Positions 12,992-46,129 of a DNA stretch of 64,000 nt are shown one piece after another. The stretch spans positions 248,001 through 312,000 of the forward strand of contig CDROCS010000275.1 of assembly GCA_977020255.1 (NCBI GenBank), in the 5' to 3' direction. How positions within the stretch are numbered: the stretch's first letter is position 1; each line of letters starts with the position of its first letter. The DNA is from Obrimoposthia wandeli. Its lineage: Eukaryota. The notes beneath the pieces are model-generated. The model saw only the letters and a list, made by a program, of their open reading frames with translations. It had not been told where the DNA came from and did not search any database. Made by a program: the position numbers and the translations under genes.

Positions 12992-13038
12992 ATAAATAAG
13001 AAAGAAGTCAGAGAATAATACAAAATTAAACACATTTA

Positions 13039-16705: not shown

Positions 16706-16758
16706 TGATTGATTTGATTGAACTTGAGATATTGATTGATTTGTATACTGAATAAAAA

Positions 16759-16777
16759 ATATATATATATATAAATA
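16759..16777. promoter_or_regulatory. (AT)n-TATAAATA tract in the short divergent polB / TBP-like intergenic region
   Basis: atatatatatatataaata between ATG 16705 (minus) and ATG 16803 (plus); function inferred. Confidence 0.4.
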
Positions 16778-16802
16778 CAATAATTTAATTATTTTACTTA
16801 CA

Positions 16803-17357
16803 ATGTTAACAAATATTAATTATGAAGGAATTTGCTTAGATGATGTATCCAAATTAAAATTTCGAACACGACCAGAACAATACGTTTATAAAGCCAAAGA
16901 TTATACAATACTTATTTTTAGAAATAAGAAATGCAGGATTATGGGATGTAAGGTACCTATTAAAAATATTTCTTACCCTTTAAGAATAAATATACTTGGT
17001 ATTCAATCAATTACGGTATGTGAAAATTTAGATCAAAGTATCAATCTATTTAAATTATGGAATGTGTTACGTAATACATGTTCATTTGACCCTGAGGTTT
17101 TCCCAGGCTTAAGATTAAATATTTTCAATCCATTGTGTGTAAATATTTTCACATCTGGAAAGGTCGTAATTTTAGGTCTTAGAAATTTAGATTTTCAAAA
17201 TCAAGTTAACGATATCATGACATACATTAAAAAAAATTATATAAATACGAAACAATTTCTAATTAAATCATTCAATTTTAAATGTCTTATAAAGCCGTTC
17301 AAAAGTATTACGAGTATGATATGTTCTTCTTGGCATCTGCATGGATTCATCCAATGA
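16803..17357 (+). CDS. TATA-binding protein (TBP)-like protein
   Basis: Two TBP repeats: TILIFRNKKCRIMGCK resembles TALIFSSGKMVCTGAK; IQSITVCENL...SFDPEVFPGL..VNIFTSGKVVILGLR resembles IQNMVGSCDV...SYEPELFPGL..LLIFVSGKVVLTGAK. Confidence 0.85.
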   Translation: MLTNINYEGICLDDVSKLKFRTRPEQYVYKAKDYTILIFRNKKCRIMGCKVPIKNISYPLRINILGIQSITVCENLDQSINLFKLWNVLRNTCSFDPEVFPGLRLNIFNPLCVNIFTSGKVVILGLRNLDFQNQVNDIMTYIKKNYINTKQFLIKSFNFKCLIKPFKSITSMICSSWHLHGFIQ

Positions 17358-17668
17358 CTATGCCAGTGACATTATCGAAAACTTCGTACAATTACCGAGT
17401 CTCTGATTTTGACGACAAAGACATTCAACAATTCAATGAAGTCGTCAAATATTTGAAAATTGACATTGAACTTGAGAATGAGGGTATATTTATGCGCGGA
17501 GATAAGTGCAAATTTTATGATTGTTCCGGAACAAAGATTTCGGATATTCAAGAAGATGGAAGAAGTTGGATGCTCGAAATAAAAATTCTCGGATATAAAA
17601 TAAATAAAAAGAATGAAACAACTCTCATCTGGAGGATTCATACAGCGGCCGAATATTTTGATGATTAA
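17282..17668 (+). CDS. Hypothetical protein, possibly OB-fold ssDNA-binding (start 17282 or 17354)
   Basis: Beta-rich 128-aa ORF ending IWRIH...EYFDD (acidic tail); ATGA overlap with the TBP-like stop at 17354-17357. The function is inference. Confidence 0.4.
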   Translation: MSYKAVQKYYEYDMFFLASAWIHPMTMPVTLSKTSYNYRVSDFDDKDIQQFNEVVKYLKIDIELENEGIFMRGDKCKFYDCSGTKISDIQEDGRSWMLEIKILGYKINKKNETTLIWRIHTAAEYFDD

Positions 17669-17749
17669 TAAATATTTAATAAAATGTTGTTATTGTTATA
17701 AACATGTACTTATTCTGATATATTTATTTTATATTAATATTTATATATA

Positions 17750-18368
17750 ATGTTATTAACAAACAATTCGACTTTTCAAGTAGTAGGACCAAGTGGTAGT
17801 GGAAAAACTTTATTTGTTTGTAAATTATTAAATTCAAAAATGTTTAAAAATAAATTTAATAAAATATATTGGCATCAAGGTGGTGACGGAGAAGCTGGTT
17901 TAACAAACCAAGAATTTAATAAAATAAAAAACATTAAGATTATTAACGGTTTTGATGAAAATTGGACGACAAGACTTGTAAAAGGTGATGTAATTGTTAT
18001 TGATGACTTATATCAAGAGGCTAACAAAGAATCTGATTTTAATGATTTATTTACAAAAATTGCAAGACATAGAGAAGTTACTGTAATTTTTATAACCCAA
18101 AATTTATTTCAATCATCGTACTCGTAATCTTAATGTACATTATTTGATTTTATTCAAAAATCCTAGAGATCAAACAGTGATAGATTTTATTACTCGTCAA
18201 GCATTTCCTCATAACAAGAGTTATTTAATTGATGCGTTTCATGATGCTACATCTTTACCTCATGGTTATTTATTTTTAAATTTTACTCAATCATGTCCTG
18301 ATGATTTAAGAATTGTTACTGATATATTTAACCGTAATGGTATTACAGTCTATAAACAAAATAAATAA
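17750..18368 (+). pseudogene. A32/FtsK-like genome packaging ATPase, frameshifted near 18112
   Basis: Walker A GPSGSGKT, Walker B VIVIDDL, RHREVTVIFITQNLF; continues in another frame as HRTRNLNVHYLILFKNPRD. Confidence 0.92.
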
Positions 18369-18388
18369 TAATAATGTTTTAAAATAAA

Positions 18389-18799
18389 ATGAATTTTAAA
18401 AAGAGTATTCTTAAACATAGTAAAAGGACAGATAAAGATGAAGTTAAAAAATTAATAAACACTGTATTATATGATCGTAATAATATTGAATTTTCAAAAA
18501 GTTTACCTTATTTTTAAACCTTAATTGACGTATCAAAAACGAATAAAATGAAAATGTTGAAATCATTTCCAATTTATGTAGTTGATGATTTAATAAAAAT
18601 TTTAAATAAAATAATTTATGGTAAAATTAAACCTGATCCTAATATTTTAAAATATAAAAATTCATTAATAAATTTAGCAAATTCACGTGGTAAAATTAAT
18701 AAAAGAAACATTATTTACAATCAAAATGGCGGATTCCTATTGGCCATACTGCCCGCTATAGCATCAGTAATAGCTGGTCTTATAACTTCAAGAAGTTAG
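18389..18799 (+). pseudogene. Basic core protein ending in an adenovirus pX-like GG|FL motif; in-frame TAA at 18515-18517
   Basis: ATG 18389 is in frame with ORF 18548-18799; C-terminus NQNGGFLLAILPAIASVIAGL. Confidence 0.7.
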
Positions 18800-18822
18800 A
18801 AGTTTAAAAAAAAATTATAAAA

Positions 18823-19130
18823 TTATATAAGAGTCTTACAAAGTAACATTAATAAGAAACTTACATTAAATGTTGAAGTAGATTCTCCCGATGTACCAGG
18901 AACCATTGTTGTTGATGCTGATGTAGAAATCATTACCGCGGCTGCTAGTCTAAAAACAATATTAAAATTAATTTAAAAAAGAAAAAAAAATACTTTTTAT
19001 GTTTCTTACTCTGCATATGAGCATCCATTGAATATTTATTATTCATTGGTCCTGTTTGACATATTTGGCAATTAAATCTAAATATAAATCATAATTAAAA
19101 AAAATATATATAATAAACTCACGTATTCAT
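18823..19130 (-). CDS. Spliced micro-gene encoding a U1/zf-met-type C2H2 zinc finger; not in the ORF track
   Basis: Exons 19130-19123, 19077-18994 and 18949-18823; GT-AG introns of 45 and 44 nt restore MNTFNCQICQTGPMNNKYSMDAHMQSKKHKKLAAAV... Confidence 0.7.
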
Positions 19131-19456
19131 TTTGAGTCTTGATTTATTTAAATTAAAGAAAATAACAAAATAGTAAATTATATTTAATTTAACATTTCAA
19201 TTTATAATAGATATCCTATTATGTAATTTCAATTATTGATAATAATATAATTATCTCAATTGCTACAATTGAATTGTGCCTATTTAATTAAGATAGTTGC
19301 CTTAATAACGAAAATTATAATAATATTAAATAATTACATTCTTTCGTTTTATACAAACATATAAACAGATTAAAATATATTTAACTTTTATAATAATGGG
19401 GATAAACAATACAAAGTTGTCTAACTTATTTATAAATTTTAATTCTTCATGCTGCA

Positions 19457-20482
19457 ATGGAAAAGATTTGGAACAATCCAGAAGATCCAGACGGGTATAC
19501 AGGGTTAGAAAAATTGACAAACAGAGTCAAACAATCAAAAACAAACACACAAAAATGGTTAAGAAATGAATTATCATATAGTTTGAATAAACCTTTAAGA
19601 CGTAAATTTCCTACTAGATCATATAAAACTAATGGTATTAATTCCTTATGGCAGATGGATTTAATGGAAATGATACCTTATTCTTCAGTAAATAACGGAT
19701 TCAAGTATATTTTAACTTGTATTGATGTATTTAGTCGTTTTGCAAGGGCAGTTGGTATTAAATCAAAATCGGGTATTGATTTATTACATGCAATAGAATC
19801 TTTAATTGTTGATGATGTACCAGTAAATATCCAAACCGATGAAGGTAAAGAATTTTTTAATTCACATGTTAAGAAATTATTTAAAACTGAAAATATCAAT
19901 CATTATTCAGTATATTCTCAATATAAAGCTGCAGTAGTTGAAAGATTTAATAGAACGTTAAGAGAACGGTTAAAGAAATATTTTACTAAACAAGGTAATA
20001 AGAAATGGGTGAATGTATTACCAAACATTATTTATGCTTATAATAATTCTAAACATAGAGGTTTAGATGGTTTAAAACCTGTAGATGTAAATAATAAAAA
20101 TGCATTTGAAATTTGGTTGAAACAAAATCCAAAAGAAAAGAAAGTTAAATCTAAATATAAAATTGATGATTATGTTCGAATATCAAAAATAAGTTCAAGT
20201 CCATTTATTAAAAATTTTAATCAAAATTGGAGTGATGAGGTTTTTCAAATTCATGATATTAATTATAAACAAAATCCAATAATGTATATTTTAAAAGATA
20301 TTGATAACGTCATCATCAAAGGAAAATTTTATAAACAAGAGTTACAATTAATTGATAAACCTAAACTATATCGAATACAAGAAATTTTAAAAACTAAAGG
20401 TCGTGGTAAGAATAAACAATATTACGTAAAGTGGCACGGATACTCTGAACCTTCTTGGATATTTGCTTCTCAAATTGAATAA
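19457..20482 (+). CDS. Retroviral-type DDE integrase with C-terminal chromodomain (intact ORF)
   Basis: WQMDL, IQTDEGKEF, AVVERFNRTL; C-terminal YYVKWHGYSEPSWI. Confidence 0.97.
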   Translation: MEKIWNNPEDPDGYTGLEKLTNRVKQSKTNTQKWLRNELSYSLNKPLRRKFPTRSYKTNGINSLWQMDLMEMIPYSSVNNGFKYILTCIDVFSRFARAVGIKSKSGIDLLHAIESLIVDDVPVNIQTDEGKEFFNSHVKKLFKTENINHYSVYSQYKAAVVERFNRTLRERLKKYFTKQGNKKWVNVLPNIIYAYNNSKHRGLDGLKPVDVNNKNAFEIWLKQNPKEKKVKSKYKIDDYVRISKISSSPFIKNFNQNWSDEVFQIHDINYKQNPIMYILKDIDNVIIKGKFYKQELQLIDKPKLYRIQEILKTKGRGKNKQYYVKWHGYSEPSWIFASQIE

Positions 20483-21494
20483 TGTCAAAATATATCATTT
20501 TACCTAGTTATAGTTGTCCAAGTACTCAACCTAACAATACAGCCAATCAATTTACTGTAGATTGGGAAAACTCTCTAAATTTAGATGGTGAATGGGAGGT
20601 TGCCTTGACTGAATTTGTATTTAATTATACTCCTTTAACAATACAAACTAATTCAAAAATACTTTATAAAACAGAAAAGATAGAAATGAAAACTTTCGAT
20701 GTATCTTTTGCAATTTTAAATGGATTAATTTTTAATAATTTAAATAATGTTTTCAATTTCAAAATTACAAAGGATCAAAAATTAGAAATAAGTACAATTA
20801 ACAGTATTCCTCGAATGTTGTTAAAATTCGAATCTTTAGAAGAATCAAAAATTATAGGTTTTAATGAAATACAAAAAATTGCTAGTCATGTTATAACAAG
20901 TGATGAAATTGTTGACATAAATAAAAATATTCATGCTAAAATGAGAATTACAATTTATTCTTTAGCTGAATATGAATACGAAATAAAATTTAATCAAAGT
21001 TATTTGATACAAGATAGTTCTTCATTATGTAATATTATAGCCAGTAAATGTAATGCGATTTTTAAAAGCTGTAATATAGATTCAAACGGATTATTTGATA
21101 TTTTAATAAATATAAATGTAAAATCAGTTTTATTTGACGAAAAACTTGCATCTTTATTAGGTTTAAATAATGTTTTCTTTGAGAAACGAATTAAAGGTTT
21201 TCAAGAACCAACACTTTCTAGCTCATATAATCAAATGTATATTTATACTAGTTTAACAGATTCTGTCTTAGTAGGATCTGATTATGTTCCACTGTTAAAG
21301 TCTATTTGGTTAAAATCATTAAAATATCGATATGGAGATGTAGTAAATGTTAAAATTGATAATCCAATGTACTTGAAAATAAGAGATTCAAGTATTAATA
21401 GAATCGAGGTAAATATACGTGATGATTCTGGTAATTTAATTCCATTTTCATATGGAGCAAAACTAGTTTAACTCTTCATTTACGTAAAGTATAA
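20482..21494 (+). pseudogene. Minor capsid protein (penton); terminal 1-nt frameshift near 21460
   Basis: NNTANQFTV...DGEWEVALTEF; MYIYTS...VPLLK; IEVNIRDDSG; the natural end TLHLRKV* is in a shifted frame. Confidence 0.85.
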
Positions 21495-21530
21495 ACAATA
21501 TAAATATATTTAAAATATAAAAATATAAAA

Positions 21531-21932
21531 ATGAATACATCAATTATAAAATTTTACAGCAAAAGTCAACAGGGCGGTGAACTTCCCTATTTCATTGGTA
21601 AGCAATATGGATCTGGTTGGTTTCAAACTATTTCTAGATTAGCTATTCCATTTATTAAAAAAGCTGGTTTATCAGCAGCTACAAGTGCTGCCAATGCAAT
21701 TGGCGAAACGGTAGGAACTGCGTTAACAAATCCAAAAAACTTAATTTCATCTCTCAAAGAAAATACAATCAAAGAAGTCAAAACTTTGATTCCAAAATTA
21801 AAAAATAATGCTGTTGAGAGTTTAAATAAAGTCGCAAATTGTGTTGAACAAAATGGAAAGGGTCTTAAACGTAAAAGAAATCATTTAAATAGTATAAACA
21901 AACGTCTTAAAGGTACTATATTCCAAAAATGA
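21531..21932 (+). CDS. Polinton small virion protein (pVI-like, amphipathic) with QxGG/QxGxG motifs
   Basis: QQGG, QYGSGWFQTISRLAIPFIKK and QNGKGLKRKR; lies between penton and MCP. Confidence 0.7.
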   Translation: MNTSIIKFYSKSQQGGELPYFIGKQYGSGWFQTISRLAIPFIKKAGLSAATSAANAIGETVGTALTNPKNLISSLKENTIKEVKTLIPKLKNNAVESLNKVANCVEQNGKGLKRKRNHLNSINKRLKGTIFQK

Positions 21933-23149
21933 CTAGTATAAAATCTGAATTGTGTATTTTCTATAGACCACTACCTCAAGTAGTGATTGAAAATTCAAGT
22001 TTTGAAGAAATATTTCCAATCAATTCAATTACTGGGGGAAATTTAAATGACATAGAATTTAATATTCATGCATCTGAATAAGATTATCTGGATTTGAATG
22101 ATACTTTGTTAAATATTAAATTAAAAGTTGTAAATGAAGATGGTACTGATTTAATGAAAGATAACGATGTAACTCCAGATAATTACATGTTTCAAACTTT
22201 GTTTAGAGATGTTATTCTAACACTTAATAATGTAAAGGTTGAAGGAGGAAATGGAACGTATACTCATAAGGCTATATTCGATACTCTTTTGAATTTTAGT
22301 AGTGATACCAAGTATACTAACCTTGAATGTTCCGGGTATGATGATGATGCAAAAAATCGTAAACAATGGATTAGTGAATCTAAAATATTTTCATTGTGTA
22401 ATTCAATTAGATTAGATTTCTTTGATCAACCAAAATATTTGATTCCAGGGATTAATGTTCATTTGAGATTTATGAGAAATCAGCATAATTTTTCGCTCTA
22501 TTCAGAAACTTCAAAACCAATTATTCAAATTCTAGATGCTAGATTGTATGTTAGAAGAGTAAAAGTTGATTCTTCAGTAATGATTGGACATCAGTTAGGT
22601 TTGCAAAGTCAGAATGCAGTTTACCCAATTAGAAAAACTCAGTTAGTAACATATTCAATTCCTCAGGGTTCTTTGGAACTTAATAAAGATCAAATATTCG
22701 GAGACTATCGTTTACCCAAGTTCATTTTGATTGCTTTCAAAGATACACCTCAGGGTGGTAAGGAATACAAAGTTAAATCTTCTACGTTCAATACATTTAA
22801 TGTTTCAACAATATCATTAGCTAGAAATACAGATTATCGAGAAACTTATAATCTAGATAATAACAATTTTTCATTAGCATATATGCAGTCAATTATTCGA
22901 AATATGAATATTTTAGATAAAAACTTGAATAATGGTATCAGATTTTCTGATTTTAAATCAAGAAGTTCGATTTTCACTTTTCTATTAGCACCAGATTTTG
23001 ATATAAACACTACTCAAGTGCCTAAAACTGGTAATTTAAGACTTGAAATTAGATTTAATTCTCCTTTGGTTGTTCCAACAAGTGTTTTGATTTACGGAAT
23101 ATTTGATTCCGAAATTCAGATTACGAAAAATAAAACTGTGATTGTATGA
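21929..23149 (+). pseudogene. Double jelly-roll major capsid protein with in-frame TAA at 22079-22081
   Basis: ATG 21929 MTSIKSELCIF...IEFNIHASE*DYLDLNDTLL is in frame with ORF 22094-23149; typical LRLEIRF..P C-terminus. Confidence 0.9.
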
Positions 23150-23522
23150 AGTAAGCTTATTGTATATTATATTCTTTATTTAAATTAGTACTTTAGAAAT
23201 TTATAAATCCGGAAAAATATTATTGAATAACAAATTTAATGGAGTATATTCATTGGATAAAATTCCATCATTAAAACCCGGAGGCTACATTATCAATACT
23301 CATACTTCAAATCTACCAGGCGAACATTGGATAGCAATATTCGTTGACAGATTCGAGATTCGAGTGTTTGATCCTTTTGGATTCTATTATCCTTCAAAGT
23401 TGGTGTCTACACTTGAAAAAGAAAACATTCCAGTCTACTATAATCGAGTTAAATTTCAGAATCCATTAACTAAAAACTGCAGACCTCTGAGTCTTTTATG
23501 GTTGAAACTTCAACACAAATAA
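23146..23522 (+). pseudogene. Adenain-family cysteine protease, N-terminus disrupted
   Basis: NTHTSNLPGEHWIA, VFDPFG, FQNPLTKNC (usual CG is CR here). Confidence 0.85.
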
Positions 23523-23574
23523 TTTTAAGTATAAACAAATATATCATTATAGTATTTCATTTTATTTTTTTCAA

Positions 23575-24028
23575 ATGGCTTTTTTTTGATTTAGAATGTT
23601 TTATTGATAATAATGGAGAATATATTCCAAAGGAATTATGTATAATGTATGTGAATGATATGACTTGTCCATTTCATTACGTGTTTAAAAATCAAATACT
23701 ATGGAGTAGTTTATCATTTACAGTTAAAAGAAAAAATCTATATTTGATAAATCATCATCATCAGTTATCCTGGTTTGAAGGTGAAAGCTCTGATATTCAT
23801 ATTGATGATGTTGAAACAATATTCTATGTTATGGATTCTATTGATGGAAAGAAAATTAATTTAGTGAAACGAATGTTTCCAAATTTGAGAATTGTGAATT
23901 ATAATAAAAGTTTCAAAAATTTAAAGAAAATGCCAAAAAATATTCGATGTCCGTTTAGAAAACACGGAAAACATTGTGCTTATTTGAAATGTTTTTCTCT
24001 ATGTATTGATTATGTAAATTGTATATAA
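23575..24028 (+). pseudogene. DnaQ/DEDD-like exonuclease-type accessory protein, probable +1 T frameshift after the start
   Basis: FFDLECF...PKEL and C-terminal CPFRKHGKHCAYLKC; removing one T of an 8-T run gives MAFFDLE from ATG 23575. Confidence 0.6.
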
Positions 24029-25157
24029 ATATATTTATTAAGGATATTTTATTTTAATATATAATTTATGTTATTTAAATAATTTTTACCATATTTCTTT
24101 AGATGTGTAAGCCTAGGAAAAAACTTTGATCTAAATTTTCACATAGAATAGTGTGTGTATGATTACGTAATACATTCCTTAACTGATAAGAGTGAACTTT
24201 AGCTTAAATTTTCACATAGAATAGTGTGTGTATGATTACGTAATACATTCCTTAACTTTTAAGAGTGAACTTTCACATAGAATAATTGATTGAATACTAT
24301 ATAATTTCTTAATTTATGCCAAATCTAACCCTTAACTTGTGAACGACCATAAAATTTTTACATGAATAAACTCGTAATATGTTGACGAATACAACCATGT
24401 ACTTGAAACTATGAAATTCCAACTTTTTTTTAACCCTTCATCTATGGACGACCATACCTATATGGATGAATTCGTCTTCTAAAGATGATTACAACCATGT
24501 ATTCAAACTTTGACATTTAAAACTTGATTTGGTCTATAGCTCGACCCTTTGATTTATGGACAGTCATACTTTATGGGTGACTTCGTCTTCTAAAGATGAT
24601 TACAACCATGTACTAAAACCTTGATATTTTAATTTTTTTTTTAGTCCTACCCTTTGACCTATGGACGACCACAACCCTTTAGATGTGATGACCAACCATA
24701 GTTGACCTTAATCATACCTTCAAAGTTTCAAGTCAAAACTGAGTCTGACCCTTTGATTTATGGACGACCACAACCCTTTAGATGTGACGGCCAACTATAG
24801 TTGACCTTAATTATACCTTCAAAGTTTCAAGTCAAAACTGACCTTGACCCTTTGAATTATGGACGACCATAGTGGTATACCAAAGAAGGGTGGAGACTAG
24901 ATCAATTGACCCTTCCGCCCTCCCCCCTTAAAACCTTCAAGTCAAAACTGACCTTGACCCTTTGACCTATGGACGACCACAACCCCTTGGGTATGTTGGT
25001 CGACCATAGACCGTCACGACCATACCTTCAAACCTTCATAACCTTTCTGAGCCAGACCCTTATGGTGTGGCAAGACACCCTTATGGTGTGACACCCTTTA
25101 ACTTGGTGTGCGCACACAGGGGGGTCAAGTGATCTAGACTCCATCCTTCTACCTACT
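23884..25157 (-). repeat. Right TIR of the Polinton
   Basis: Inverted copy of 11655-12991. Confidence 0.9.
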
Positions 25158-28020: not shown

Positions 28021-29339
28021 TGTACTAACGTTTTAATCGTCCAAGTGCTACATCATATGATTTTCTTGTGAAATCTAGATTCAAAATTAATATCAACGGT
28101 TCTTTTACCAGATACTGCCGTAAATTTAGTAACTTGTCGACTTTATCTCCCGCTACATTATTTATTAAATCATTATATATGGCTCTCTAACTCTCGAATT
28201 CATATAAGCTTCCATTAAAACCCATATGTACACCTTCAATACTTCATTCCTCGCCAACCACTGATTTATTTAATTACATTATAGATCTTTCCTCCAATAA
28301 TCATTCTTGCTTCTCATTAAATTCTTCATATACGTGGTTATTTTACTGATATCCTTTTCTATATCTTTTTGGTTATCCTCCATATGTAATTCATCCGCTA
28401 ACATCTGAATCTCATTTAATTGTGTTAACGTTCTTTAAAAAAACAATATATCCGTATCTTTCAATTTCTTCTTCACTATTCTCTCTTCTTGTTGATCTAT
28501 TGAAAGTGTTTCTAGCCTTTATCAACATACCTTTCCATATTCGTTTTTGTTTTATTAACTAAATTAGCTTTGTTTCAGCATCGATACCTCCAATTAATTT
28601 TAAATTAATTTTACTTTATTTAGTATTATTTTGACTGTTAGGAAGGAGCTTTCTATTCCATTGTAACTTAAATTTATTAATCTTTAAATTTAATAACTTG
28701 ATATCATGACCTCTAAATTTGTCATATACAATCGTATTTTATCTTATACTCAATATTATTCCAATCTTTATATATTATTAATATATCTAAAATTAATTAT
28801 TTCTCTTTTATCCTTATCATCATACACTTTCTATCTAATGAGTGAAAGAAAGTATATAAGAGAACACTTTTACTAATAACGGCCTTGATCGCAATTATCC
28901 TATAACTACTATCTAGCCTAATTCTTAAAATCTCAAAGGACCTTACATAAGTCTATCCAAACTCTCCAATATATAAATTTTAATGTCTTCATTAGGGGCC
29001 AGAAATAATAATTTATTAAATATTTTCAATCATTAGGTTTTGTAAATCAGTTTGGAAAATTCAAATAAAATCAAGAATAGAGTATATAAATACATTTCAA
29101 CAATTAAAATCATCTATAATGTCTATGTAAGCTATAAATTAAGTTTATGGAATCAATATTTCAAGTTTGAATATCAAAAATAATTACAACTTTTGAGGAA
29201 AACTATTGATACTTAATAAAATATACAATAGTTATGTGGTGACCTTGGAAATACCAGAAAAAATTATTTAATTTCAAATTAAAAATTAAACCATTTTGTT
29301 TAAATATGTGGAATAAAAAATACAATTATTCAAACTGCG

Positions 29340-31106
29340 ACTTCGACTCCTACATTGGTGAGCCGGACAACAGAAGAACATGCCGAACGAAGAACAGCAT
29401 ATTGCTCACCATTTTGTCACCATTTTGGCCAGAAGATCCGAACTTTGGTCCAGATTGAAGCTAATTCCAAACAAGTGGAATCTCCTCATAGAAAACGAAA
29501 CACAGCATCCCGGGGTCGGGATATTATTATGCAGCCAACAGCTACAGATCCATACGAGAGTCTACATGCGGCTATGATCAAGCGAATGGCCCCATCCAAA
29601 TTCCAAAGACTGGAGCAGTTACTGAATATGGGTCCGATTGAAGATAGGAAGCTGACTCAATTGCTTAGGGACATGAAGCGACTTAGCGAACATAATAGTG
29701 TCAGAGATCTCCTACAAGAAATATTTATGTGGAATATTACAGCACAAGTATGAGAAATGTTAGTCACTCTTACTGACAAACCATTCGAAGATATCGCAGA
29801 ATTTGCAGATAGTATCACGGAGGCTTTGGAGACATCGACTCATCCGGTCTCAGAAATTTCAACATATTGCCAGAAGGACAGCTTCCAAGATCAGATAAAC
29901 GGGTTATCGAAGAAATTGAAAATGTACTCAAGCGTATTGATAATGGCTCTTCAAATCCAAGAAAAAATAGATGATATCATCGAGTCGTCTTATGTACGTC
30001 ACAAATTAATTAACAGGCCAACAACATTTAGTAGATACTGGTGCTGAATTCAGTGTTCTCCCAACAACAGCTCAATACCGTGTTTCTCCAAATACAGAAA
30101 ATCTGAAAGCAGCAAACAATACACCTATCAGAACGTTTGGTTGCCGTGAAATAAAGTTAAATATTGGCCTTCGACAATTGACTTCATAATTACAGACGTA
30201 TCTAGACCCATTCTTGGCGTAGATTTCTTCCGACATTTTGGGATACTAATTTATTTACCTAATTGACGATTAATCAATGCTGAAACATTTGTCAATGCGC
30301 CAATTTGAAATACATACGGTATCTCGTCGTTATTGGATATAGATGGTCTGAAGATGTTTATACAAAAATGCTAATTGAGTTTCCAAATCTTACGAATACT
30401 CAATTTCGTCAGACAAACTCAGGCATGAAATATTCCATCATAGCGAGACAGCATGAGTTCCCGTTTACTGCCGTCCAAGACGACTACCTATGGAGAAATT
30501 CACAGCCGCCAAAAATGAATTTGATTATATCTAAAGGCAGGAATAGTTCGATGTGCCAACAGTCCTTGGGGATCAGCTCTTCATATGGTTCCGAAATCTA
30601 TAAAACTCGCAGAATGGATACCATGTGGAGACTACCACGTTCTGAACCAAGCTACTACTCCCGATAGATATCCAATTCCTCATATTCAAGATTGCAACCA
30701 GAAGCTAGCCGGGATGAAATTTTTTCGAAAATTGATCTTATAGAATATCATCAAATTCCTATTGCTCCGAAGGATATTTCTAAAACGGCTATAACAACAT
30801 CATTTGGGATGTTCGAGTATTTGAGGATGCCATTTGAACTCCGAAACGCAGAACAAACATTTCAGAGACTGATGGATAAGGTTTGTCATGGGTTGGATTT
30901 TGTTTACGTCTATTTGGACAACATTTTGGTATTTAGTCAATCCGAGGAAGACCATGTCAATCATATTAAGAAGCTGTTTGGTCGACTCGACGATAATAGT
31001 CTGATAATAAACAAAGTAAAATGCGAATTTTGAAAAAAATCTATCACTTTTCCGGGACATCTTATCAATGCAACAGGGATTCTTCCGCCTACAGAGAGAA
31101 TACGTG
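29340..31106 (+). mobile_element. Degenerate Ty3/gypsy element, 5' part (gag, protease, RT)
   Basis: Gag SPFWPEDP / DPYESLHAAMIKR / RKLTQLLRDMKRL; protease LVDTGAEFSVLP; [25 protein letters not shown]. Confidence 0.9.
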
Positions 31107-34100
31107 AGTAGGTAGAAGGATGGAGTCTAGATCACTTGACCCCCCCTGTGTGCGCACACCAAGTTAAAGGGTGTCACACCATAGAAATGTCACACCATAA
31201 GGTGTCACACCATAAGGGTATATGTTGCCTCACCATAAGGGTATATGTTGCCTCACCATAGAAATGTCACACCATGAAGGTATATGTTGACTCACCATAA
31301 GGGTGTCTTGCCACACCATAAGGGTCTGGCTCAGAAAGGTTAAGATAGAGAGGGAGGGGGGAAGGGTCAATTGATCTAGTCTCCACCCTTCTTTGGTATA
31401 CCACTATGGTCGTCCATAATTCAAAGGGTCAAGGTCAGTTTTGACTTGAAGGTTTTAAGGTATGGTCATGACCGTCTTTGGTTGGCCATCACATCTAAAG
31501 GGTTGTGGTCGTCCATAAATCAAAGGGTCAAGGTCAGTTTTGACTTGAAGGTTTTAAGGTATGGTCATGACCGTCTATGGTTGGCCATCACATCTAAAGG
31601 GTTGTGGTCGTCCATAAATCAAAGGGTCTAGGTCAGTTTTGACTTGAAACTTTGAAGGTATAATTAAGGTCAACTATGGTTGACCATCACATCTAAAGGA
31701 TTGTGGTCGTCCATAGGTCAAAGGGTCGGACTAAAAAAAAAAAATTAACGAATTCATCCATATAGGTATGGTCGTCCATAGATGAAGGGTTAAAAAAAAT
31801 TGGAATTTCATAGTTTCAAGTACATGGTTGTATTTGTCAACATATTACGAGTTTAATCATGTAAAAATTTTATGGTCGTTCACAAGTTAAGGGTCAGATT
31901 TGGAACAAACATGATAATTTTATTACATGGCGGTATTTGCATATGAAAATTGACTTCAAAGATACCCTTAAGGTCATGCAAACTTTAAGAGGTCCTTGTA
32001 AAAAATAAAAATACTTGTAATTTTCTAAAATAAAAATATTTTTTAAATTTAAATTTGTGCCAAATTATTTTGTTAGATTTTGTAAAGTTAAACAAATTTA
32101 ATTTATAGAATTTTTTAAAATATTAAAGTAACATTATTTAAAATAAATATTAGGGAAAATGTTAATAAACTCAAATTACTTTACTAACAGTATTATTATT
32201 ATTATTATTATTTTTTCATAAATATTTAAATTTACGCAAATTTTTATCCATTTTATTAATGTAATTAAACAATTCCTGGTCCTGGTGAAAAATAAAAAAT
32301 ACTTGTAATTTTCTAAAATAAAAATATTTTTAAATTTAAATTTGTGCCAAATTATTTTGTTAGATTTTGGTAAAGTTAAACAAATTTTAATTTAAGGGAT
32401 TTTTTAAGATATTAAAGTAACATTAATTAAAATAAATATTAAGAAAAAATGTTAATAAACTCAAATTACTTTACTAACAGTATTATTATTATTATTATTA
32501 TTATTTTTTTTTTTTCATAAATATTTAAATTTACGCAAATTTTTATCCATTTTATTAATGTAATTAAACAATTCTTTGCGGAAAAATTACTTGTAATTTT
32601 GTTTTTTCTTCAAAATAATAATAATTTAAATTTGCGCCAATTTAATTTATTAGATATTATTAAAGTTAAACAAATTTTAATTTAACAAGTTTTTTAATAT
32701 TAAAGTACCAACACATCTATCAATCAATTATTCTATGTGAAAGTTCACTCTTATCAGTTAAGGAATGTATTACGTAATCACACACACACTATCCTATGTG
32801 AAAATTTAGTACAAAGTTTTTCCCAGGCTTATGCATCTAAAGAATTATGGTAAAATTTCTTTAAATAACTTAAATTTCATGTCATACATACTTTGGAGTC
32901 CTGGAGAAAAATACTTGTAATTTTCTAAAATAATTTTATTTTTTTTTTAATTTAAATTTGTGCCAAATTTTTTATCGTTTCTTTGATTTAATTAAACAAA
33001 TTTGATTTTAAACATAATGTTAATTATAAAATAATTAATAATTTGATAAAAATTCATCTTACCACAAGTTATTCATCGAATCCATTGATGTATGTCCGTC
33101 AGCCTAATAGCATTATTCCATAATCTAACTGTAACTTTAGAAAAAAAAATAACAAATTTATTATATTAAAATTTAAAAATTGCGCGTTTTTTATTGTTTA
33201 CAATTAATGTATTAAAATAATGACGAAAATAGTTTCAAATACAAAGCAATTCATATTAATTATAACTAATTTATTAAAATAAACAAATTTACAAGTACTA
33301 TTTGATATTTTTAAAATATAAATAATTTATTTAAAAAAAAAGAATACTTCAAGTTCAAGTTAAATTTTGATAAATTCTAACATATTATTTTTAAATTACC
33401 GCCATTTATATATTATCCCTTTTGATGTATTTAAACAAATGTATATACAAACCTAATTATTATAACTCTAAGTTAAATATCTTAAATATTTATTAATTTT
33501 AAAATTGCATTATTTTATGATTGTAATTTATACCTAAAATAATGATGAATTTATTAAAAATATAATAATTACAAAGCAAATTAAAAAAAATTAAAAAAAA
33601 AATATATATATATATATATAAAGTAAAATCATTTGCTATTATTAATTTGTAATTTTCAAATTAATACTAGCAACCAATGAATAACATTAATAATATGTTT
33701 ACATTATATTAATTAATATGTAAATTTTCATGTGTGTGTTTTCTCTCACATAACTTTCACATGTTATAATGATCAATTAACACTCACATAAATAATTAAA
33801 ACATCCTTATAACATTCCTTAATTGATTTTTATTTAAACTGATAAAATTAACTTAATGTTATTCAAAGCTTACTAATTAAATAAATGTTTATTTAAATAA
33901 TTTGAGTATTAACATTATTCGATTTACACTATAAATATTCGAAAATATCTTTAACACATTAAAAAATAACTTCAATTTTTAAAATTTGTATCGAATATTG
34001 AAAATTCATTTGAAAACACATGTTTTTCGTCTATAAATTCGAATATAAAATCTTTAATTATATTGTTTTATATGTAAATAAATTAAAATATGTACATATT

Positions 34101-37100
34101 CGATTATGAATTAAGACTAATTGTATGAATTAATACAAGTGTAAATGTAAATAAAGGCAATTACAATTAACAATGAATGCAGTTACAAGTACAAGTAAGA
34201 AAGAATACGAATACAATTATGAATGAATATGAATGTAAAAACAAATGTACAAGTACATGAATGAATATTAGTAAAAATATCAATGCATTTGAGTTATAGT
34301 TTGAATAAAGGAGAGTTAGATTGAAAGTGAATGAATACAAGTATACATTCAAGTGAATGCAAATACGAGTAAGAGTTTCAGCAAGTAAATATAAAACTAT
34401 GAATGAGTGACAGTATAAGTGATTGAAAATAAGAGTGTCGATAGTTTGATTGAATGCGAGTGTAATTTATACTATAAGTAAATTAAAATAGAGTTTTCGT
34501 ATGAATAAAGTTATGTTAAGTTACAGTTAGATTAATAACAAGTAAGCAACTATAGGAAGCAGTGATATTGAAGTATGTTAAAAATTAGAACCACTAAGTT
34601 ATGGCAAGATTAATAAAAAACAACACCAAGTTTGAAGGTATGAATGAAAATTAGTAAAATATTTATGTATTTGAATGTAATTGAAAGATAGTTTGAATAA
34701 ATTACATTTAGATTGAATGTAAATGAATGCAAGTATGATTGAATGCTGTTACAAGTACAAGTAAGAAAGAATACGACTGCAAGTACGAATGTCAATTATG
34801 AATGAAAATTAGTAAATATATTAATGAATTTGAATAATTAAAATGTCTTATCTCGTTTGATAAAATTCCTTAATTGAAATATTTTAAAATAATTAGTTTA
34901 ATTTAAATTCTTTATTTTTAAATAACTCGATTATACAATTATATTCGTAAATATAATTGAAATTATCATTATTCGTTTCTCTTTTTAACTATTCGAAAAT
35001 ATATTTATATACAAATTTAGTAAATTAACTCAACAAACAATTTTATTTTTTAATTACTTGATATTTTTGCCATTGTCTTATTAATATAATATGAATATTC
35101 AATTTATTTCTTCAAAAATTCATTTTATATGTTAAATAATATTTTTTTACCACATTATTGTGGTTTTTATCAAGTGTTTTTATTTTTAAACTATAAAAAT
35201 ATTTTAATTATAAAGTTAGTAGCTGTATTCCGCCCACTGCATATAACATAAATTTCAAATATAAAGTACTATTAAATGTATTCTTTCAAATAGTAAATGT
35301 TTTTTCGAGTTATTTAATTTTGTTTACTAGACATTCGAAAATTGACTTGTAAACATAATATTATTTTGCATATATTCACTTTAATATGTTGTAAGTTATT
35401 ACTTTAATATAATCTACAACAAAAAACTTCAAATAATTTAATATTATGATTATTAAGTAAACTACTTGAAGTTTTTATATCAAATGATTTTACTTTATAT
35501 ATATATATATTTTTAATTTGCTTTGTAATTATTATATTTTTAATATATTCATCATTATTTTAGGCATAAATTACAATCATAAAATAATGCAATTTTAAAA
35601 TTAATAAATATTTAAGATATTTAACTTAGAGTTATAATAATTAGGTTTGTATATACATTTGTTTAAATACATCAAAAGGAATAATATAAAAATGGCGGTA
35701 ATTTAAAAATAATATGTTAAAATTTATCATTTTACAGACTTTTATTAAAATCTAAAGGGTTTAAAGCATAAATTGTAACAACAACAAAAGTACAAGTGAG
35801 TTAATATCTTGTAATATTCTATAATTTTTAACATTTGTATTTTAGTAGTTATTAATTGAACTTGAAGTATTCTTTTTTAAATAAATTATTTAAATTTTAA
35901 AAATATCAAATAGTACTTGTTAATATGAATTGCTTTGTATTTGAAACTATTTTCGTCATTGTTTTAATACATTAATTGTAAACAATAAAAAACGCGCAAT
36001 TTTTAAATTTTAATATAATAAATTTGTTATTTTTTTTTTCTAAAGTTACAGTTAGATTATGGAATAATGCTATTAGGCTGACGGACATACATCAATGGAT
36101 TCGATGAATAACTTGTGGTAAGATGAATTTTTATCAAATTATTAATTATTTTATAATTAACATTATGTTTAAAATCAAATTTGTTTAATTAAATCAAAGA
36201 AACGATAAAAAATTTGGCACAAATTTAAATTTTAAAAATATTTTTATTTTAGAAAATTACAAGGATTTTTCTCCAGGACTCCAAAGTATGTATGACATGA
36301 AATTTAAGTTATTTAAAGAAATTTTACCATAATTCTTTAGATGCATAAGCCTGGGAAAAATTTTGTACTAAATTTTCACGTAGAATAGTGTGTGTATTAT
36401 TACGTAATACATTCCTTAACTGATAAGAGTGAACTTTCACATAGAATAATTGATTGATAGATGTGTTGGTACTTTAATATTAAAAAACTTGTTAAATTAA
36501 AATTTGTTTAACTTTATTAATTTCTAACAAATTAAATTGGCGCAAATTTAAATTATTATTTTGAAGAAAACAAATTTACAAGTAATTTTTCCACCAGGAA
36601 TTGTTTAATTACATAAATAAAATGGATAAAAATTAGCGTAAATTTAAATATTTATGAAAAAATAATAATAATACTGTTAGTAAAGTAATTTGAGTTTATT
36701 AACATTTTTTCTTAATATTTATTTTAAATAATGTTACTTTAATATTTAAAAAAAAAAATGATATAAATTAAATTTGTTTAACTTTACCAAAATCTAACAA
36801 AATAATTTGGCACAAATTTAAATTTAAAAAAAATTTATTTTATTTTAAAAAAATTTTCAAGTATTTTTATTTTTTCACCAGGACCTCTTAAAGTATGAAT
36901 AACCTTAAGGGTATATTTGATCTAAATTTTCACATAGAATAGTATGTGTGTTAAAAACCACATTCCTTAACTGATAAGAGTGAACTTTAGCCTTGATTTT
37001 CACATAGAATAGTGTGTGTGTGATTACGTAACACATTCCTTAACTGATAATAGTGAACTTTCATATAGAATAATTGATTGAATACTATATAATTTTTTAA

Positions 37101-37852
37101 TTTATGCCAAATCTAACCCTTAACTTGTGAACGACCATAAAATTTTTACATGAATAAACTCGTAATATGTTGACAAATACAACTATGTACTTGAAACTAT
37201 GAAATTCCAACTTTTTTTAAACCCTTCATCTATGGACGACCATACATATATGGATGAATTCGTCTTCTAAAGATGATTACAACCATGTATTCAAAACTTG
37301 ACATTTAAAACTTGATTTGGTGTATAGCTCGACCCTTTGATTTATGGACAGTCATACTTTATGGGTGAATTCACCTTCAAAAGATGATTACAACCATGTA
37401 CTAAAACCTTGATATTTAAAAAAAAAAAAAAATTTAGCCCGACCCTTTGACCTATGGACGACCACAACCCTTTAGATGTGATGACCAACCATAGTTGACC
37501 TTAATTATACCTTCAAAGTTTCAAGTTAAAACTGAGTCTGACCCTTTGACCTATGGACGACCATAGTGGTATACCAAAGGGTGGAGACTAGATCAATTGA
37601 CCCTTCCCCCCTCTCCCCTATCTTAACCTTTCTGAGCCAGACCCTTATGGTGTGGCAAGACACCCTTATGGTGAGTCAACATATACCTTCATGGTGTGAC
37701 ATTTCTATGGTGAGGCAACATATACCCTTACGGTGTGACACCTTATGGTGTGACATTTCTATGGTGTGATACCCTTATGGTGTGACACCCTTTAACTTGG
37801 TGTGCGCACACAGGGGGGGTCAAGTGATCTAGACTCCATCCTTCTACCTACT
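31107..37852. mobile_element. Non-autonomous fold-back Polinton derivative, 6,746 bp
   Basis: Same AGTAGG...CCTACT ends; TSD TACGTG (31101-31106, 37853-37858); arms 31107-33635 and 35481-37852 are inverted repeats; no recognisable genes. Confidence 0.93.
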
Positions 37853-38440
37853 TACGTGCTATAAAGAAGTTTTCTAGACCACAATCACAACGTCAATTAC
37901 GGAAATATCTCGGTATTATCAATTTTTACCACCTATTTATGCTGCCAACATTCTTTCATCTAGTCTTAAGAAAGCCAAGAAAGACTTCCAATGGAGTCAT
38001 GAATGTGAATTAGCCTTCAATAGATCTAAGACAGCCCGAGCTGAATTAGTTGCACTTAGACATCCTCAAGTAGATAGCCCGATGGCTATTACAACAAATG
38101 CGTCAGACATAGCAGTCGGAGGAGTCCTCGAGCAATTTAAAGATGGTCAGTGGGTCCCAATCTCATTTTCGTCAAGAAAACTCAGTCCAGCAGTACAAAA
38201 TTATGGCACCTTCGATAGCAAGCTAATCGGCCTCCTAGATGGAATAAAACACTTTTAGCATCTCGTTGATGGTCGACACTAAACAGTATTTACGGACCAT
38301 AAGCCTTTGATTTACGCTCTAACATCTAAAGCAGAGAAAAGAACTGCAGCTCAGATCAGAAGAATTCATCGATTATCCACCTTTACGACAGATATACGCC
38401 ATGTCTCAAGAAAGGGAAATCTGGTTGCTGAAATCCGCCA
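37853..38440 (+). mobile_element. Ty3/gypsy element, continuation (RT thumb, RNase H)
   Basis: The empty site reads ERIRAIKKFSRPQSQRQLRKYLG; then ASDIAVGGVLEQ...FSSRKL...VFTDHKPL. Confidence 0.9.
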
Positions 38441-41400
38441 GAAGATATACTAGACAACGACTCAGATTTTGACTATTGTTAGAGTTAAATTTAAAAGAAC
38501 ATTAAAATTACTATCCTTAAAAACTGTTAAGCAAATAACAAATATAATAACAATTGCTTAAGTTATGAATAAAGTTTATACCAAAATACTTATTAAAATG
38601 TTAAGTAGTGACCCACAATTAAGAATCATAGTTTTATTATATTAAATAATTATGTGTAAAATTCACCTTTTTACGAATAACTTTTTAAAAAAAGACCATA
38701 AATCAAAATCTGAACTACACATAAATTAGTAATGAAATATCAATTTATTTCATGTATGCTCGAAAGGATTTAAAAATATTGAACTAAAATTAAATTAGAA
38801 AATTAAAACTCACAACAACTTTCAGTGAAGGCTTTCACTAAAAACAAGAAGACAGAATATTTGAAGTTTCTATAGTAAAGCTTTATAACAAATTGGCTCT
38901 CTGATCAAAAATTGCAAAATGTTTAATAATTATAAATTAATAAAGACTTTCCTAATTAAGAAGCATTATGAAGAGTTCCTGTGACATCAACCAACTGGAA
39001 AGTGCATCGACTTGAAATGATCGATCAGGGATTCGATGGAACGTTCTAGATTTTTCATTTGTTCTCAATTACGTCATTTATCTGTGACGTCTCGATAAAT
39101 CATCGGCGGGACCCCACTGATTTAAAAACAAAAAAAATTCTGATAACCGCAGAATAATACTCAAAACTTATACAATAAAAAAATCATCTTACGTGTATCT
39201 GGAAGATAATTTTAATTCAATTTAAAATATTATAAATTTATCTAAGAAGTCCCAGCTAGTCTATGGCCAATCCACACATATTATATTTCAAATCTGGAAC
39301 GTCTAGTACGAACCAAGGCCATTCCAGTATAGCTGTACCTATTACGGCCCCCCTCCACGACAACTTTTTTCCCAACATGAAGCTACAGTAAATTGCTTGT
39401 CATCAAGTTCAAGTTTTGTGTGCCTTTGGAAAATATGCGATCATTAAATTCATGCACTGCCTAAATATAAGTATATGTTTTGTTACACGGAACTATCGTG
39501 GCTTTTAATTTTTCCTGATGACCCAAATTACGAATAAACCTTCTCAACTGTTAACCACAGATTTATTAAATGTTCAAATTTCTTATCAAGTTCTTATCGT
39601 CATAGTGTTCTTAAAGAAAAGTTCATTTTAAATTATTTAGTAGGTTTCTTACCGTGTGTCGATTATATCGTGTAACGAATAACCTAAAATTATTATGATA
39701 GAATTTCGTATTGGAAAGATACAAATCAATAACATGTTTAAGTTAAAGAACGCAATAAAATGTTTACATGAAAGTTCCATGATTTCTTTCACTTCAAAAC
39801 ATTCTACATTCTTGTACAAAGTACCTTAAATCAAAACATATTTTAATTGTTTCGTGATAAAATTATCATAAATGATTTTCTTAACACTTGCAATCGATAG
39901 CTTCACAGCTTAAAATGGAGGGCTAAAGAAGTTCCTTTATAAAATTCAAATATTTTGGCAACTTACTTACCAGATGAAGTATTCCTTATGAACGAGACTT
40001 AATTTGTTTTCAAGCTCTTCCAAACAAGACATAAAATTTGTAAAATGCAGGTTCTCAATTTCCGTATGCTGTAATGTTTCTGTTATTAGAAAATCGGTTA
40101 ACCAACGCTTTTTCGATAGACTGCATATGTCATGACTACCAGTCACTTAGAAATCAAATAAAAATCTTGAATGGTTTCAAAAAAGTTGGCTTCATTATCT
40201 AGATGCGATTCCACTTTATTCGTAAAAAAGCCTGGAGGATATGTTTGTCGATTATTGCTCTTCTCATCCTCATAATATTAAAGAATCATTGACTAGCAAT
40301 AATCGTATCTTCTTAACACTAAACTTAACAGCAATCATTCAACATTGAGATCTTAAAAACATTCGAATGGTCAAACTAAAGTATTGCAAAGACAGCAGTT
40401 CTACATATACTCATATTATAATCATGGATTATGATATGTGAAATGTGACAGCGGTAGATGCTATAAATAAGATATTTACATATTGGATTGTAATTAACTA
40501 TTGATTGATATTAAGTAATTATAAATATTGTTTTTACATGTGGGTTTAGATATTCAACTTAAGAAGAGAAACAATTTACATAATATGCATTAAATGATGA
40601 TAATGAGTTCCTATTTCAGTTAATACTTTTGTGAAAACATTCTTTCTCTATACTACAATCTTTAGATAATGAACAAAACGAAATATAAATTTTTTCTAAC
40701 TTAAAGTTTGATTTTCTAAAACAGTTAGTTGTATTTCGAATATTTATCCAGCATGGAAATATCAGCAGTAGGTGTATGGGTTTGACTCGTATTTCAATGA
40801 CATTGAAATATGTTTTCTCACAAATGTTAAGAATACTGCTAAACAAAGTTGTATTATAGACATTTCTTGATGCAAATGCACTTTCCTCATATATATCTGA
40901 ATGTAACTGAATGTTACTACATTACATATTATTTTAATAATAAGTTAATAATAAGCAAAAGATTTACTAAGGGCAGTATTCGACAGTCTTCCACAATGAT
41001 TTTTAATTATTTTTGTGAGTTTTTAGCGGCCTATAATAACATTTTCCTTGTAAACCTGATTTCTGATCTTTTTGAATAAATTTGGTTATTCTAGGCAGTA
41101 TACTTTTAAATTTGCCGCTAAAAACTCATAAAAATAATTAAGTATTATTAAAACAATTTATTCAAAGAAGTTAAAATATTAATTTTGGATCTTTTACCAT
41201 TTATTTTTTTCTCAATTTTATGTGTAAAATCATTAAAAACATTTAGAATTTTTTAGAATGCATTTTAATATGATAATAATGTTTTACAATCAAATAGTCA
41301 TATGCATGTTTATTTATTGTTATTTTTATAATTTATTATTAGAATAATTTATGTTATATGTTAATAATATGGTGTTTTTAATATGTTTTTAATATTTAAA

Positions 41401-44400: not shown

Positions 44401-44568
44401 TCAAAATCAATTTGGTTATTAAACTCTACCTATATCTAACTGGTAATTAGAAATTCTACTAACTCACTAATTTCAGCGAGTGTACACTTTATTCTTCATA
44501 TTATTAGAAATGCAAATCCAAATGATTTATAACTGAATTCCCAAAACCAAAAAGGGCTGAGCACTTAC

Positions 44569-44973
44569 ATTGATGCCAGATTTCCAGTTGCACAGTCTCC
44601 AAATGAGGCATGGGAAGTTGAACATGAGTGCTTGCAGCATTAAGATGAAGGGAACCCACTGGTAGTAGAGCAGCCGGGAGTTGTCTCGCTGGGCGATCAG
44701 CTCCGGTATGTGGCGGTACGGATTGATGAAGTAGGTGCTCGACACCCAGCACACTGACTCTGCATACTCCTCCTGGGCACTGGTAAACTCGGTGGGTACC
44801 CAGCAGGCGATGGGCTTGCCCACATATTGGCGAGTGGACACCACCAGCGTGAACCCGATCAGCAGGACTGTGGTGAAGAAGTGACTGAATCTGTCGGCCT
44901 GGTCATCGTCGCGACGAAATTTGCCAATATCCACTTTGAACTTGGACAAACCGGCGAAGAACGGAGCCTCCAT
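44569..44973 (-). CDS. Innexin, first coding exon (135 codons)
   Basis: DDQADR..QYVGKPIACWVPTEF..EEYAESVCW..YYQWVPFILMLQALMF; GTAAGT donor at 44568. Confidence 0.92.
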
Positions 44974-46129
44974 GTTTAGAACTCAGTAAACTTGAGCGGC
45001 AGCAGCACAAGCGACAATAACGACAACAGCGGCAGAAGCAGTGTTTAGAGAAACCTCATCTGAAACTTCATTGTAGCTCTGTGTAATAAGCAGAAATCAG
45101 AAAGAGCCAATCAGTGGTCACATTTCCTATGAATTTTCTCCAGACAATCTGTGTGTATGATCCATGGATCCGTTCTCTTTTCTAATATTGATTGGAGTAT
45201 ATAATTCTTCGTTAATTGATTTACAGGAAACAGTTACTTATTATGCAAATCTTTGGCAGAAATTCGCTTTGACATATGTATCAATACAGCAATAAAAATT
45301 CGAAATTAATTTCGGTTATTTTAACGGTTACTTTGTCATTTGAAATAATCGCCAATTGCACAATGCTAAAAAATACAATTATACGATTCTCCATTTACGC
45401 CAGTGTTGCTCAACTTCTTCAAGGACGTAATTTAAACCAGAAATAATAGCAGGAAATATTTAAATTTAATTTCAAAATGGCAAATTCACAATTTTCCCTT
45501 AGTTTTTCTTTCGAATATGTAAGCTTTATTGGTATATAAACTGATATTGTCCAAAAATCAACAACAAAAATTTAACTTATTAATTCAAATTAAATTTCAG
45601 TCTATAATGCTTCAAAGGGCATTGAAAATTTAGAAAATGTATTTTATGACAAAGTCATTCACATAATGGTTTCTTCAGATAATCCAATTAAGAAAATCTG
45701 AAAATGAATTATGCATTTCAATTTGTAAGTAGCTGAACATATCAAATTAAGCTTATCCTCAAGCTATAAGCTCACTTAGGCCGTATTCAAGAACCTTCCT
45801 TAACTTTAAGGAACATTAACTAAAATTATTTTCTTAACTAAGGAGTTCCTTAACTTTTTTACTAAAGTCCGTCTCATAAGAATAGTTGTATTTCTTTAAC
45901 TAAGGAAAACGTTAAGCAGAAAGCTAAATATTTAAATTCTCAGATAATTAAAGTTGCAAAAAAAATTATAATAATAAAATATATAATATAAAATATATTT
46001 AAATTATTTTTAAACTTTTTATTTCAAAAAGAAAGCAACTCAAAATAAAATAAAATTTTCATCGAAAAAATAATTCTAAAAACTCATTATTTTGAATAAT
46101 ATTCATAAAACAACTTATTCGATCATAAT

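Follow-up and report, generated by a model that had tools for sequence, protein, structure and literature searches.

We analyzed a 64-kb stretch of AT-rich animal DNA from Obrimoposthia wandeli (contig CDROCS010000275.1, positions 248,001 to 312,000; henceforth the window, with coordinates counted from its first base) that holds three copies of one Polinton family, E1, E2 and E3, all within 52 kb. On its sequence, E2 (31107-37852, 6746 bp, flanked by the hexamer TACGTG) is a non-autonomous Polinton with extended terminal inverted repeats (TIRs), and all tested features of that class fit. With a little more belief than doubt, we propose that template switching lengthened its TIRs while a helper drove its replication, and that an integrase acting in trans then inserted the product.

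E2 ends at 31107 and 37852 with AGTAGGTAG...CTACCTACT, termini identical to those of E1 (11655-25157), the full-size Polinton of the same family. It is flanked by a perfect 6-bp target-site duplication (TSD), with TACGTG at 31101-31106 and again at 37853-37858 on the plus strand. The first 116 aligned bases of E2 match the right TIR of E1 without a difference (0/116), and the unique module of the TIR shows differences at 3-5 of 154-155 positions. No genes were found in E2: only five stop-to-stop frames reach at least 60 amino acids (aa), the longest being a low-complexity frame of 99 aa. A tblastx search with 31910-35476 found no match in the E1 core or in 28 metagenome loci (those confirmed via a TBP-like gene among 69 candidate stretches), and Rfam and ARAGORN returned 0 matches on 31107-36100, a part of E2. 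A sigma-70 scan found 24 sites against 30.8 expected, under a bacterial promoter model that is inapplicable to an animal genome. The 23-nt E2 terminus occurred in 0 stretches of the metagenome contigs and in 0 stretches of the viral contigs. A search of sequencing runs gave four, with word shares of 0.39-0.78; all come from a single sample and study and may be what the assembly was built from, hence not independent of it, and no RNA run was among those listed. Because E2 has family termini, a 6-bp TSD and no genes, it was probably integrated by the family integrase. A sequence-only reading had described E2 as a gene-less Polinton that integrated cleanly and is mobilized in trans, and on these points our results agree with it.

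The insertion target is a decayed gypsy-type gag-pol remnant (29304-38450, plus strand; DUF7041, RVT_1 and RT_RNaseH) with stops and frameshifts, for which no pair of long terminal repeats was found. The TSD had been said to restore the gypsy reverse transcriptase frame (ERIR, then AIK). The frame is indeed collinear across the site, since the flanks, translated separately, end in PPTERIR on the left and resume as (R)AIKKFSRP on the right; pol nevertheless carries stops and frameshifts elsewhere and is dead regardless of E2. Amplified or chimeric long reads are known to produce long inverted repeats artificially, and the palindrome might in principle have arisen by assembly of chimeric fold-back reads. 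Such an artefact would be expected to copy the flank as a mirror image and to yield two identical arms. E2, however, has a TSD at both ends, a collinear gypsy frame, and arms that are set apart by whole modules and by about 2% substitutions, with no perfect stem between them longer than 201 bp. Judged on anatomy alone, an assembly artefact is unlikely, and we give it next to no weight.

The inverted arms account for 4909 of the 6746 bp, as had been reported (about 4.9 of 6.7 kb, with limits within 4 bp of ours). At 2533 bp (left, 31107-33639, plus strand) and 2376 bp (right, 35477-37852, minus strand) they exceed the TIRs of the gene-bearing E1 (1.28-1.34 kb) about 1.9-fold, which upholds the claim that they extend beyond the TIR of an autonomous element. 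Between them lies an unpaired, non-coding spacer of 1837 bp (33640-35476, 20% GC) that is unmatched in E1 or elsewhere in the window. Read from the outside, the arms begin with the terminus and short repeats, followed by a module in which the terminus recurs in inverted orientation and by 99-bp units, three in the left arm and one in the right. Next inward come two 111-bp units (right arm only), a 155-bp unique module and a TBP-like 73-bp cluster (right arm only), and innermost are a 290-bp repeat and a second TBP-like cluster that carries the family tail, and then part of a 290-bp unit and some 700 bp of AT-rich sequence.

In the left arm, whose features are given on the plus strand, the family TIR part (31107-31909) comprises the terminus, 15-23-bp repeats, the subterminal inverted terminus copy (about 31364-31392), three 99-bp units plus a stub, and the 155-bp unique module, and it lacks the two 111-bp repeats. 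A patch (31910-31990) of about 35 bp without a clear match and then a 56-bp block replaces the outer TBP-like cluster. It is followed by the AT-rich 290-bp repeat (31991-32710, 15% GC, about 2.5 copies against about 1.5 in the right arm), which is neither found in the TIRs of E1 and E3 nor TBP-like; by the inner TBP-like cluster (32720-32876, a 73-bp unit plus tail), the displaced inner end of the family TIR; and by a non-TIR extension (32877-33639, 16% GC). In the right arm, on the minus strand, the inner cluster lies at 36301-36457 and the outer cluster, present in this arm only, at 36916-37100. The arms are imperfect mirror images that differ by whole modules, a point on which the sequence-only reading was silent. 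Searches with the 290-bp repeat, the extension and the spacer (blastn and tblastx) gave no match in the E1 interior, E3, the rest of the window or the 28 metagenome loci. We rejected the spacer as an element with terminal or subterminal inverted repeats of its own, since it has neither and its best inverted repeat is 10 nt long and internal. Purine-skewed degenerate repeats occupy 34080-34845 of the spacer (GC skew 0.44). Four of the five TIRs carry the terminus again, inverted, 160-260 bp inside (31364-31392, 62690-62880 and their counterparts). In E3 the terminus and its inverted copy carry the same changes, which appears to point to copying or to selection for pairing.

The ages of the arm segments bear on how the extension arose. 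Counted in aligned blocks of at least 30 bp, the two arms of E2 differ at 3/257 positions in the terminus, 6/158 in the unique module and 22/934 in the inner kilobase. Beyond the last TIR-like piece they differ at 14/674 (2.1%), compared with 2.2% in the terminal parts; the TIRs of E1 differ from each other at 11/753 and 4/203. Since the extension has diverged as much as the terminal parts, it is about as old as the insertion and would not be a late addition in place. By contrast, an internal duplicate in E2 (the linker and the start of the 290-bp unit) shows 20-22 differences in 133-134 bases (about 15%). Because this duplicate is far more diverged than the arms, the gene-less design would be older than the insertion, and a gene-less lineage was probably propagated in trans before E2 landed at its present site.

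These dates also bear on TIR extension of the kind described for Galileo, in which the two ends of a chromosomal copy recombine or convert one another and the TIRs become longer: a broken end is repaired from the other, interior DNA is copied inward, and the product moves later or not at all. Marzo et al. (2013, PMC3573991; cited here, like the other papers given by PMC or bioRxiv number, from the parts of the text available) describe such recruitment, with the longest TIRs in non-autonomous copies. This mode also accounts for outer modules that are unlike while the inner kilobase is only 2.4% diverged, a pattern repeated in E1. However, an extension no younger than the termini is contrary to a late event in place, and hairpins at both junctions are left without explanation. 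This route would yield the same product as template switching, and we regard it as a possibility, well short of likely.

Those hairpins stand where the arms meet the spacer. The left one (33633-33673) overlaps the left arm and forms 16 of 17 pairs at about -12 to -13 kcal/mol, and the right one (35422-35476) has 11 perfect terminal pairs and reaches -9.1 kcal/mol on the minus strand. We compared both with background positions using one rule for all positions and excluding those near the junctions; the test was designed after the hairpins had been seen. The left hairpin (-12.0 kcal/mol) was matched at 0/113 and 0/113 spacer positions and at 0/165 host positions, and the right hairpin at 0/113, 1/113 and 1/165, respectively. 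Against shuffled sequences (n = 200), z was -5.8/-6.2 for the left hairpin, with 0/200 as stable on either strand, and -2.7/-2.9 for the right hairpin, with 2/200 and 1/200. The arms end in TTGCTAT (left) and TTGATAT (right), and the sole differing base (33636) pairs in the left hairpin, as would be the case if the seven bases were part of the spacer side and acted as microhomology.

The junctions could also be read as the edges of an inserted centre. In that case a snap-back palindrome without a spacer, centred on GATATC, would later have been stabilized by an unrelated 1.8-kb insertion with hairpin ends; in its favor, a 4-bp duplication would account for the arm ends (A/C)TAT and ATAT, and hairpins stand at both ends of the spacer. 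AT-rich DNA, however, contains many self-complementary 4-mers; the spacer occurs only once in the window, it lacks inverted repeats at or near its ends, and the left hairpin overlaps the arm. This history is, in our judgment, highly unlikely.

TIR extension is seen elsewhere in the family as well. The left TIR of E1 contains an inverted copy (12814-12993, minus strand) of the last 48 or so codons of the open reading frame (ORF) at 23474-24028; its source, 23882-24028, is the 3' end of this conserved right-end ORF. The ORF is conserved in two metagenome loci (L016 and L023), and its inverted tail is absent from the TIRs of E3 and E2. The E1 TIR has thus grown over the 3' end of the ORF. Together with the TBP-like pieces discussed below, this tail makes two earlier recruitments and indicates that interior DNA has been copied into TIRs recurrently in the family, of which E2 is the extreme case.

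The junction hairpins, the equal age of extension and termini, and the TIR recruitment in E1 make an origin by template switching plausible. In the model that we favor, an ancestor of the E1/E3 family would first have shed its genes and acquired non-coding, AT-rich DNA, and an old internal duplication would have produced the two TBP-like clusters, linkers and 290-bp units. The strand-displacing pPolB of a helper would then have replicated a linear copy, and the nascent strand started at the right end would have crossed the spacer and stalled at the 41-nt hairpin. Pairing of the microhomology (6 of 7 nt) at the foot of the second hairpin on the same strand would have allowed copy-back, through which the interior became part of a second arm. 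The product would have integrated into the gypsy remnant with a 6-bp TSD, after which the arms would have become unequal through slippage among tandem modules, exchange with family copies and point mutation of each arm by about 1%. That a protein-primed polymerase can switch templates is documented in phi29 (PMC4974454). E2 would thus offer ends and borrow enzymes like any non-autonomous transposon, and an interference function is unnecessary to explain it.

Several observations weigh against this model. The switch is not mappable, as E1, E3 and the 28 loci contain no parent for the extension. The junctions of the extended TIRs of E1 lack comparable hairpins (-2.4 and -4.1), those of E2 could be scars of repair and not causes, the hairpin test is post hoc, and a 7-nt microhomology with 6 matches is weak in DNA of 20% GC. 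One copy-back event should have left the outer arms identical, yet the 56-bp block of the left-arm patch differs from the right arm at 8/56 and the 99-bp units differ between the arms at 10-12 of 93-99 positions; the left units are within 2-3 differences of those of E3. The inner TBP-like clusters, which differ from each other at 5/115 and 4/80 and from E3 at 6-7/112 and 3-5/79, are scarcely nearer to one another than to E3. The putative history of E2 must therefore also include slippage between unlike units and exchange with further copies of the family. Finally, one copy is known, and the case for mobility of this exact form is made by the TSD and by indirect dating.

The sequence-only reading had gone further and portrayed E2 as a copy-back, defective-interfering-like satellite. 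Of this proposal, a fold-back origin is plausible on the hairpins, the equal ages and the recruitment in E1; a direct copy of a helper end is not borne out, since the extension is without helper DNA and the outer modules differ. Because the extension matches nothing in the E1 interior, E2 is not a copy-back of the helper seen in the window. A true copy-back satellite would be the fold-back of the end of an unseen autonomous subfamily, which outgrows its helper and suppresses it, either by titrating away polymerase, integrase or terminal protein or by hairpin RNA directed at the TIRs. Its panhandle shape is the textbook copy-back form (PMC13506859, available part), snapback genomes of adeno-associated virus (AAV) can regulate their helper via double-stranded RNA (dsRNA) according to the available text of PMC8235507, and 217 of the 1002 21-mers paired between the E2 arms are present in the TIRs of E1. 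However, blastn and tblastx against E1 and the 28 loci found no helper interior in the arms or spacer, none of the 1002 paired 21-mers matches the E1 coding core, and E2 has no more TBP-like units than E1 (4 against 4). We find this origin quite unlikely, and the label "defective-interfering satellite" is unproven.

Part of that proposal concerned the TBP-like repeat. The 73-bp repeat is truly TBP-like: it scored 39-58 in local alignments to the TBP-like ORF of E1 (16752-17357), and 0/200 simulated sequences scored as high for any of the four clusters in the plus orientation; the E1 cluster scored 25-35 against six other parts of E1. Its likely donor lies within this ORF (16980-17111, plus strand), to which exact matches reach 23 nt in the TIRs of E1 and 21 nt in E2. 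In an alignment of 16 proteins the TBP-like codons matched by the repeat show poor conservation, which makes the gene the likelier donor. With four unit hits each in E2 and E1, and present in every TIR of the family, the repeat is an ordinary part of the family TIR. The extra clusters claimed for E2 come down to one, in the right arm, and its four units are as many as in E1. We rejected a TBP-derived origin for other segments: the 290-bp repeat (49/200 simulated sequences as high), the extension and spacer (scores at background) and the 99-bp unit (2/200 on the minus strand, one of 18 tests). E2 had also been thought able to yield long dsRNA with TBP-matching sequence. This did not hold up, as no paired 21-mer matches the E1 core and the sole 21-nt exact match to the TBP-like ORF (36916-36936), in the outer right cluster, has no partner in the left arm. 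Fold-back RNA from E2 could, at most, target TIRs. Repeats of a locus's own TBP-like gene were found in none of the 13 metagenome loci (of 28) of at least 2.5 kb, among the first 12 self-matches listed for each locus, and no locus showed both TIRs.

Non-autonomous Polinton families were reportedly described by Kapitonov and Jurka in 2006. E2 resembles Polintons/Mavericks (adintoviruses) in its AGT-type termini, its 6-bp TSD and a TIR homologous to that of the gene-bearing E1, but differs in having an interior foreign to E1 with no gene remnant except the TBP-like repeats, and in the terminus AGTAGG in place of the commonest AGTAGT. Barreat and Katzourakis (2021, PMC8097293, available part) give 6-bp TSDs for intact vertebrate Mavericks and, in a set of 134, TIRs of 46-1447 bp, a range that the 2.4-2.5-kb arms of E2 exceed. 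The portions available of PMC6431247 and PMC3014272 contained no example of a long-armed Polinton, and non-autonomous Polintons are apparently absent in anole according to the latter. A literature search at title and abstract level, whose scope excluded Repbase, the older Polinton surveys (Kapitonov and Jurka, 2006; Jurka et al., 2007) and supplements, all of which may hold such families, found no description of gene-less fold-back Polintons. E2 is unusual among non-autonomous Polintons in its arm length and junction hairpins.

[quoted passage not shown] In Galileo, interior DNA is recruited into TIRs, and inverted-repeat expansion is said to be reported for Polintons too (Marzo et al., 2013, PMC3573991, available part). 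Galileo is a cut-and-paste element of the P superfamily whose TSD is 7 bp long and whose TIRs reach about 1.26 kb, whereas E2 has a 6-bp TSD and Polinton ends, and the Polinton family encodes its own strand-displacing polymerase, which offers a replicative route. E2 works like Galileo 2RT without being a member of the P superfamily. With copy-back and snap-back genomes (PMC13506859; AAV, PMC8235507; phi29 subgenomic DNA, PMC4974454; available parts), E2 shares complementary arms, an unpaired loop, intact origins at both ends and helper dependence. In those systems the arms are near-identical copies of a helper end and interference has been measured, whereas the extension of E2 is not helper DNA as far as is visible, its arms are mosaic, and it is integrated with a TSD.

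The replication of animal Polintons has been inferred mainly from their genes; hairpin-ended arms and the two recruitments of gene pieces add sequence evidence that is open to testing across genomes. Should hairpin junctions prove common among long-armed derivatives, these would be fossils of strand-displacement replication with template switching. A broader view, that animal Polintons regularly shed gene-less fold-back genomes at hairpin switch sites, giving self-propagating satellite lineages that use the polymerase and integrase of their helpers, insert cleanly and restrain those helpers, and that would be endogenous defective-interfering DNA virus genomes and an in vivo footprint of strand-displacement replication, strikes us as improbable. 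Should E2 turn out to be silent and present in a single copy, it would count as an ordinary non-autonomous transposon in decay. Gene-less Polintons escape surveys that mine pPolB or integrase and may be more numerous than has been estimated. Long inverted arms can promote rearrangement, and Polinton TIRs are reported to have done so at the C. elegans eri-6/7 locus (bioRxiv 2024.01.15.575659, available part).

E1 (TSD TACATG) carries a split pPolB gene (13039-16819, minus strand), the TBP-like ORF, a short ATPase gene, an integrase gene with chromodomain, capsid-module ORFs and a protease gene. Pfam matches cover TBP, an A32-type ATPase, the rve integrase with chromodomain and, weakly, an adenoviral protease; the ORFs that we take to be pPolB and capsid genes are so labeled from position, motifs and family knowledge, with no Pfam match behind either. 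The ORFs of E1 are partly collinear with the metagenome loci, and those for pPolB and capsid with L001 and L016. Among the 28 loci, 8 have an ATPase match, 5 an integrase match, 3 a capsid ORF and 2 a polymerase. The E1 polymerase is spread over two overlapping ORFs, compared with one ORF of 1148 aa in L001, and its ATPase frame is 129 aa long against 218-227 aa. We rejected E1 as a working helper on these two grounds: it is broken and is not itself functional in that role.

The divergent TBP-like gene is a regular part of the Polinton clade of E1, with 17 homologues at 42-53% identity, and adjoins the ATPase and integrase genes in five loci (L001, L014, L016, L023 and L025). A figure legend in the study of adintoviruses by Starrett et al. 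(2021, PMC8502044, available part) also uses TBP as a gene label. Searched alone against viral contigs, the TBP-like ORF had 0 of 17 candidates confirmed; the alignment had 5 of 41 confirmed, all distant (30-36%). The E1 polymerase lies at the left and is directed away from the capsid module, whereas in L001 and L016 it lies at the right and converges on it. E3 (62690-64000, plus strand), a left end cut by the window edge, has a TIR without extension, and the 3' end of its polymerase (63866-64000) has an internal deletion of about 85 codons relative to E1, judged by eye. The three target hexamers, TACATG (11649-11654), TACGTG (31101-31106) and TAGCTT (62684-62689, seen on one side only), share an initial TA and a T as the fifth base, which hints that targets may be preferred by sequence. 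Outside the Polintons, the window contains a tandem array at 8774-9361 (48-bp unit, 12.2 copies, 93% matches) and pieces of host genes for a dual-specificity phosphatase (48-881), an innexin (exon, 44527-44982) and an amino-acid permease (58958-59704).

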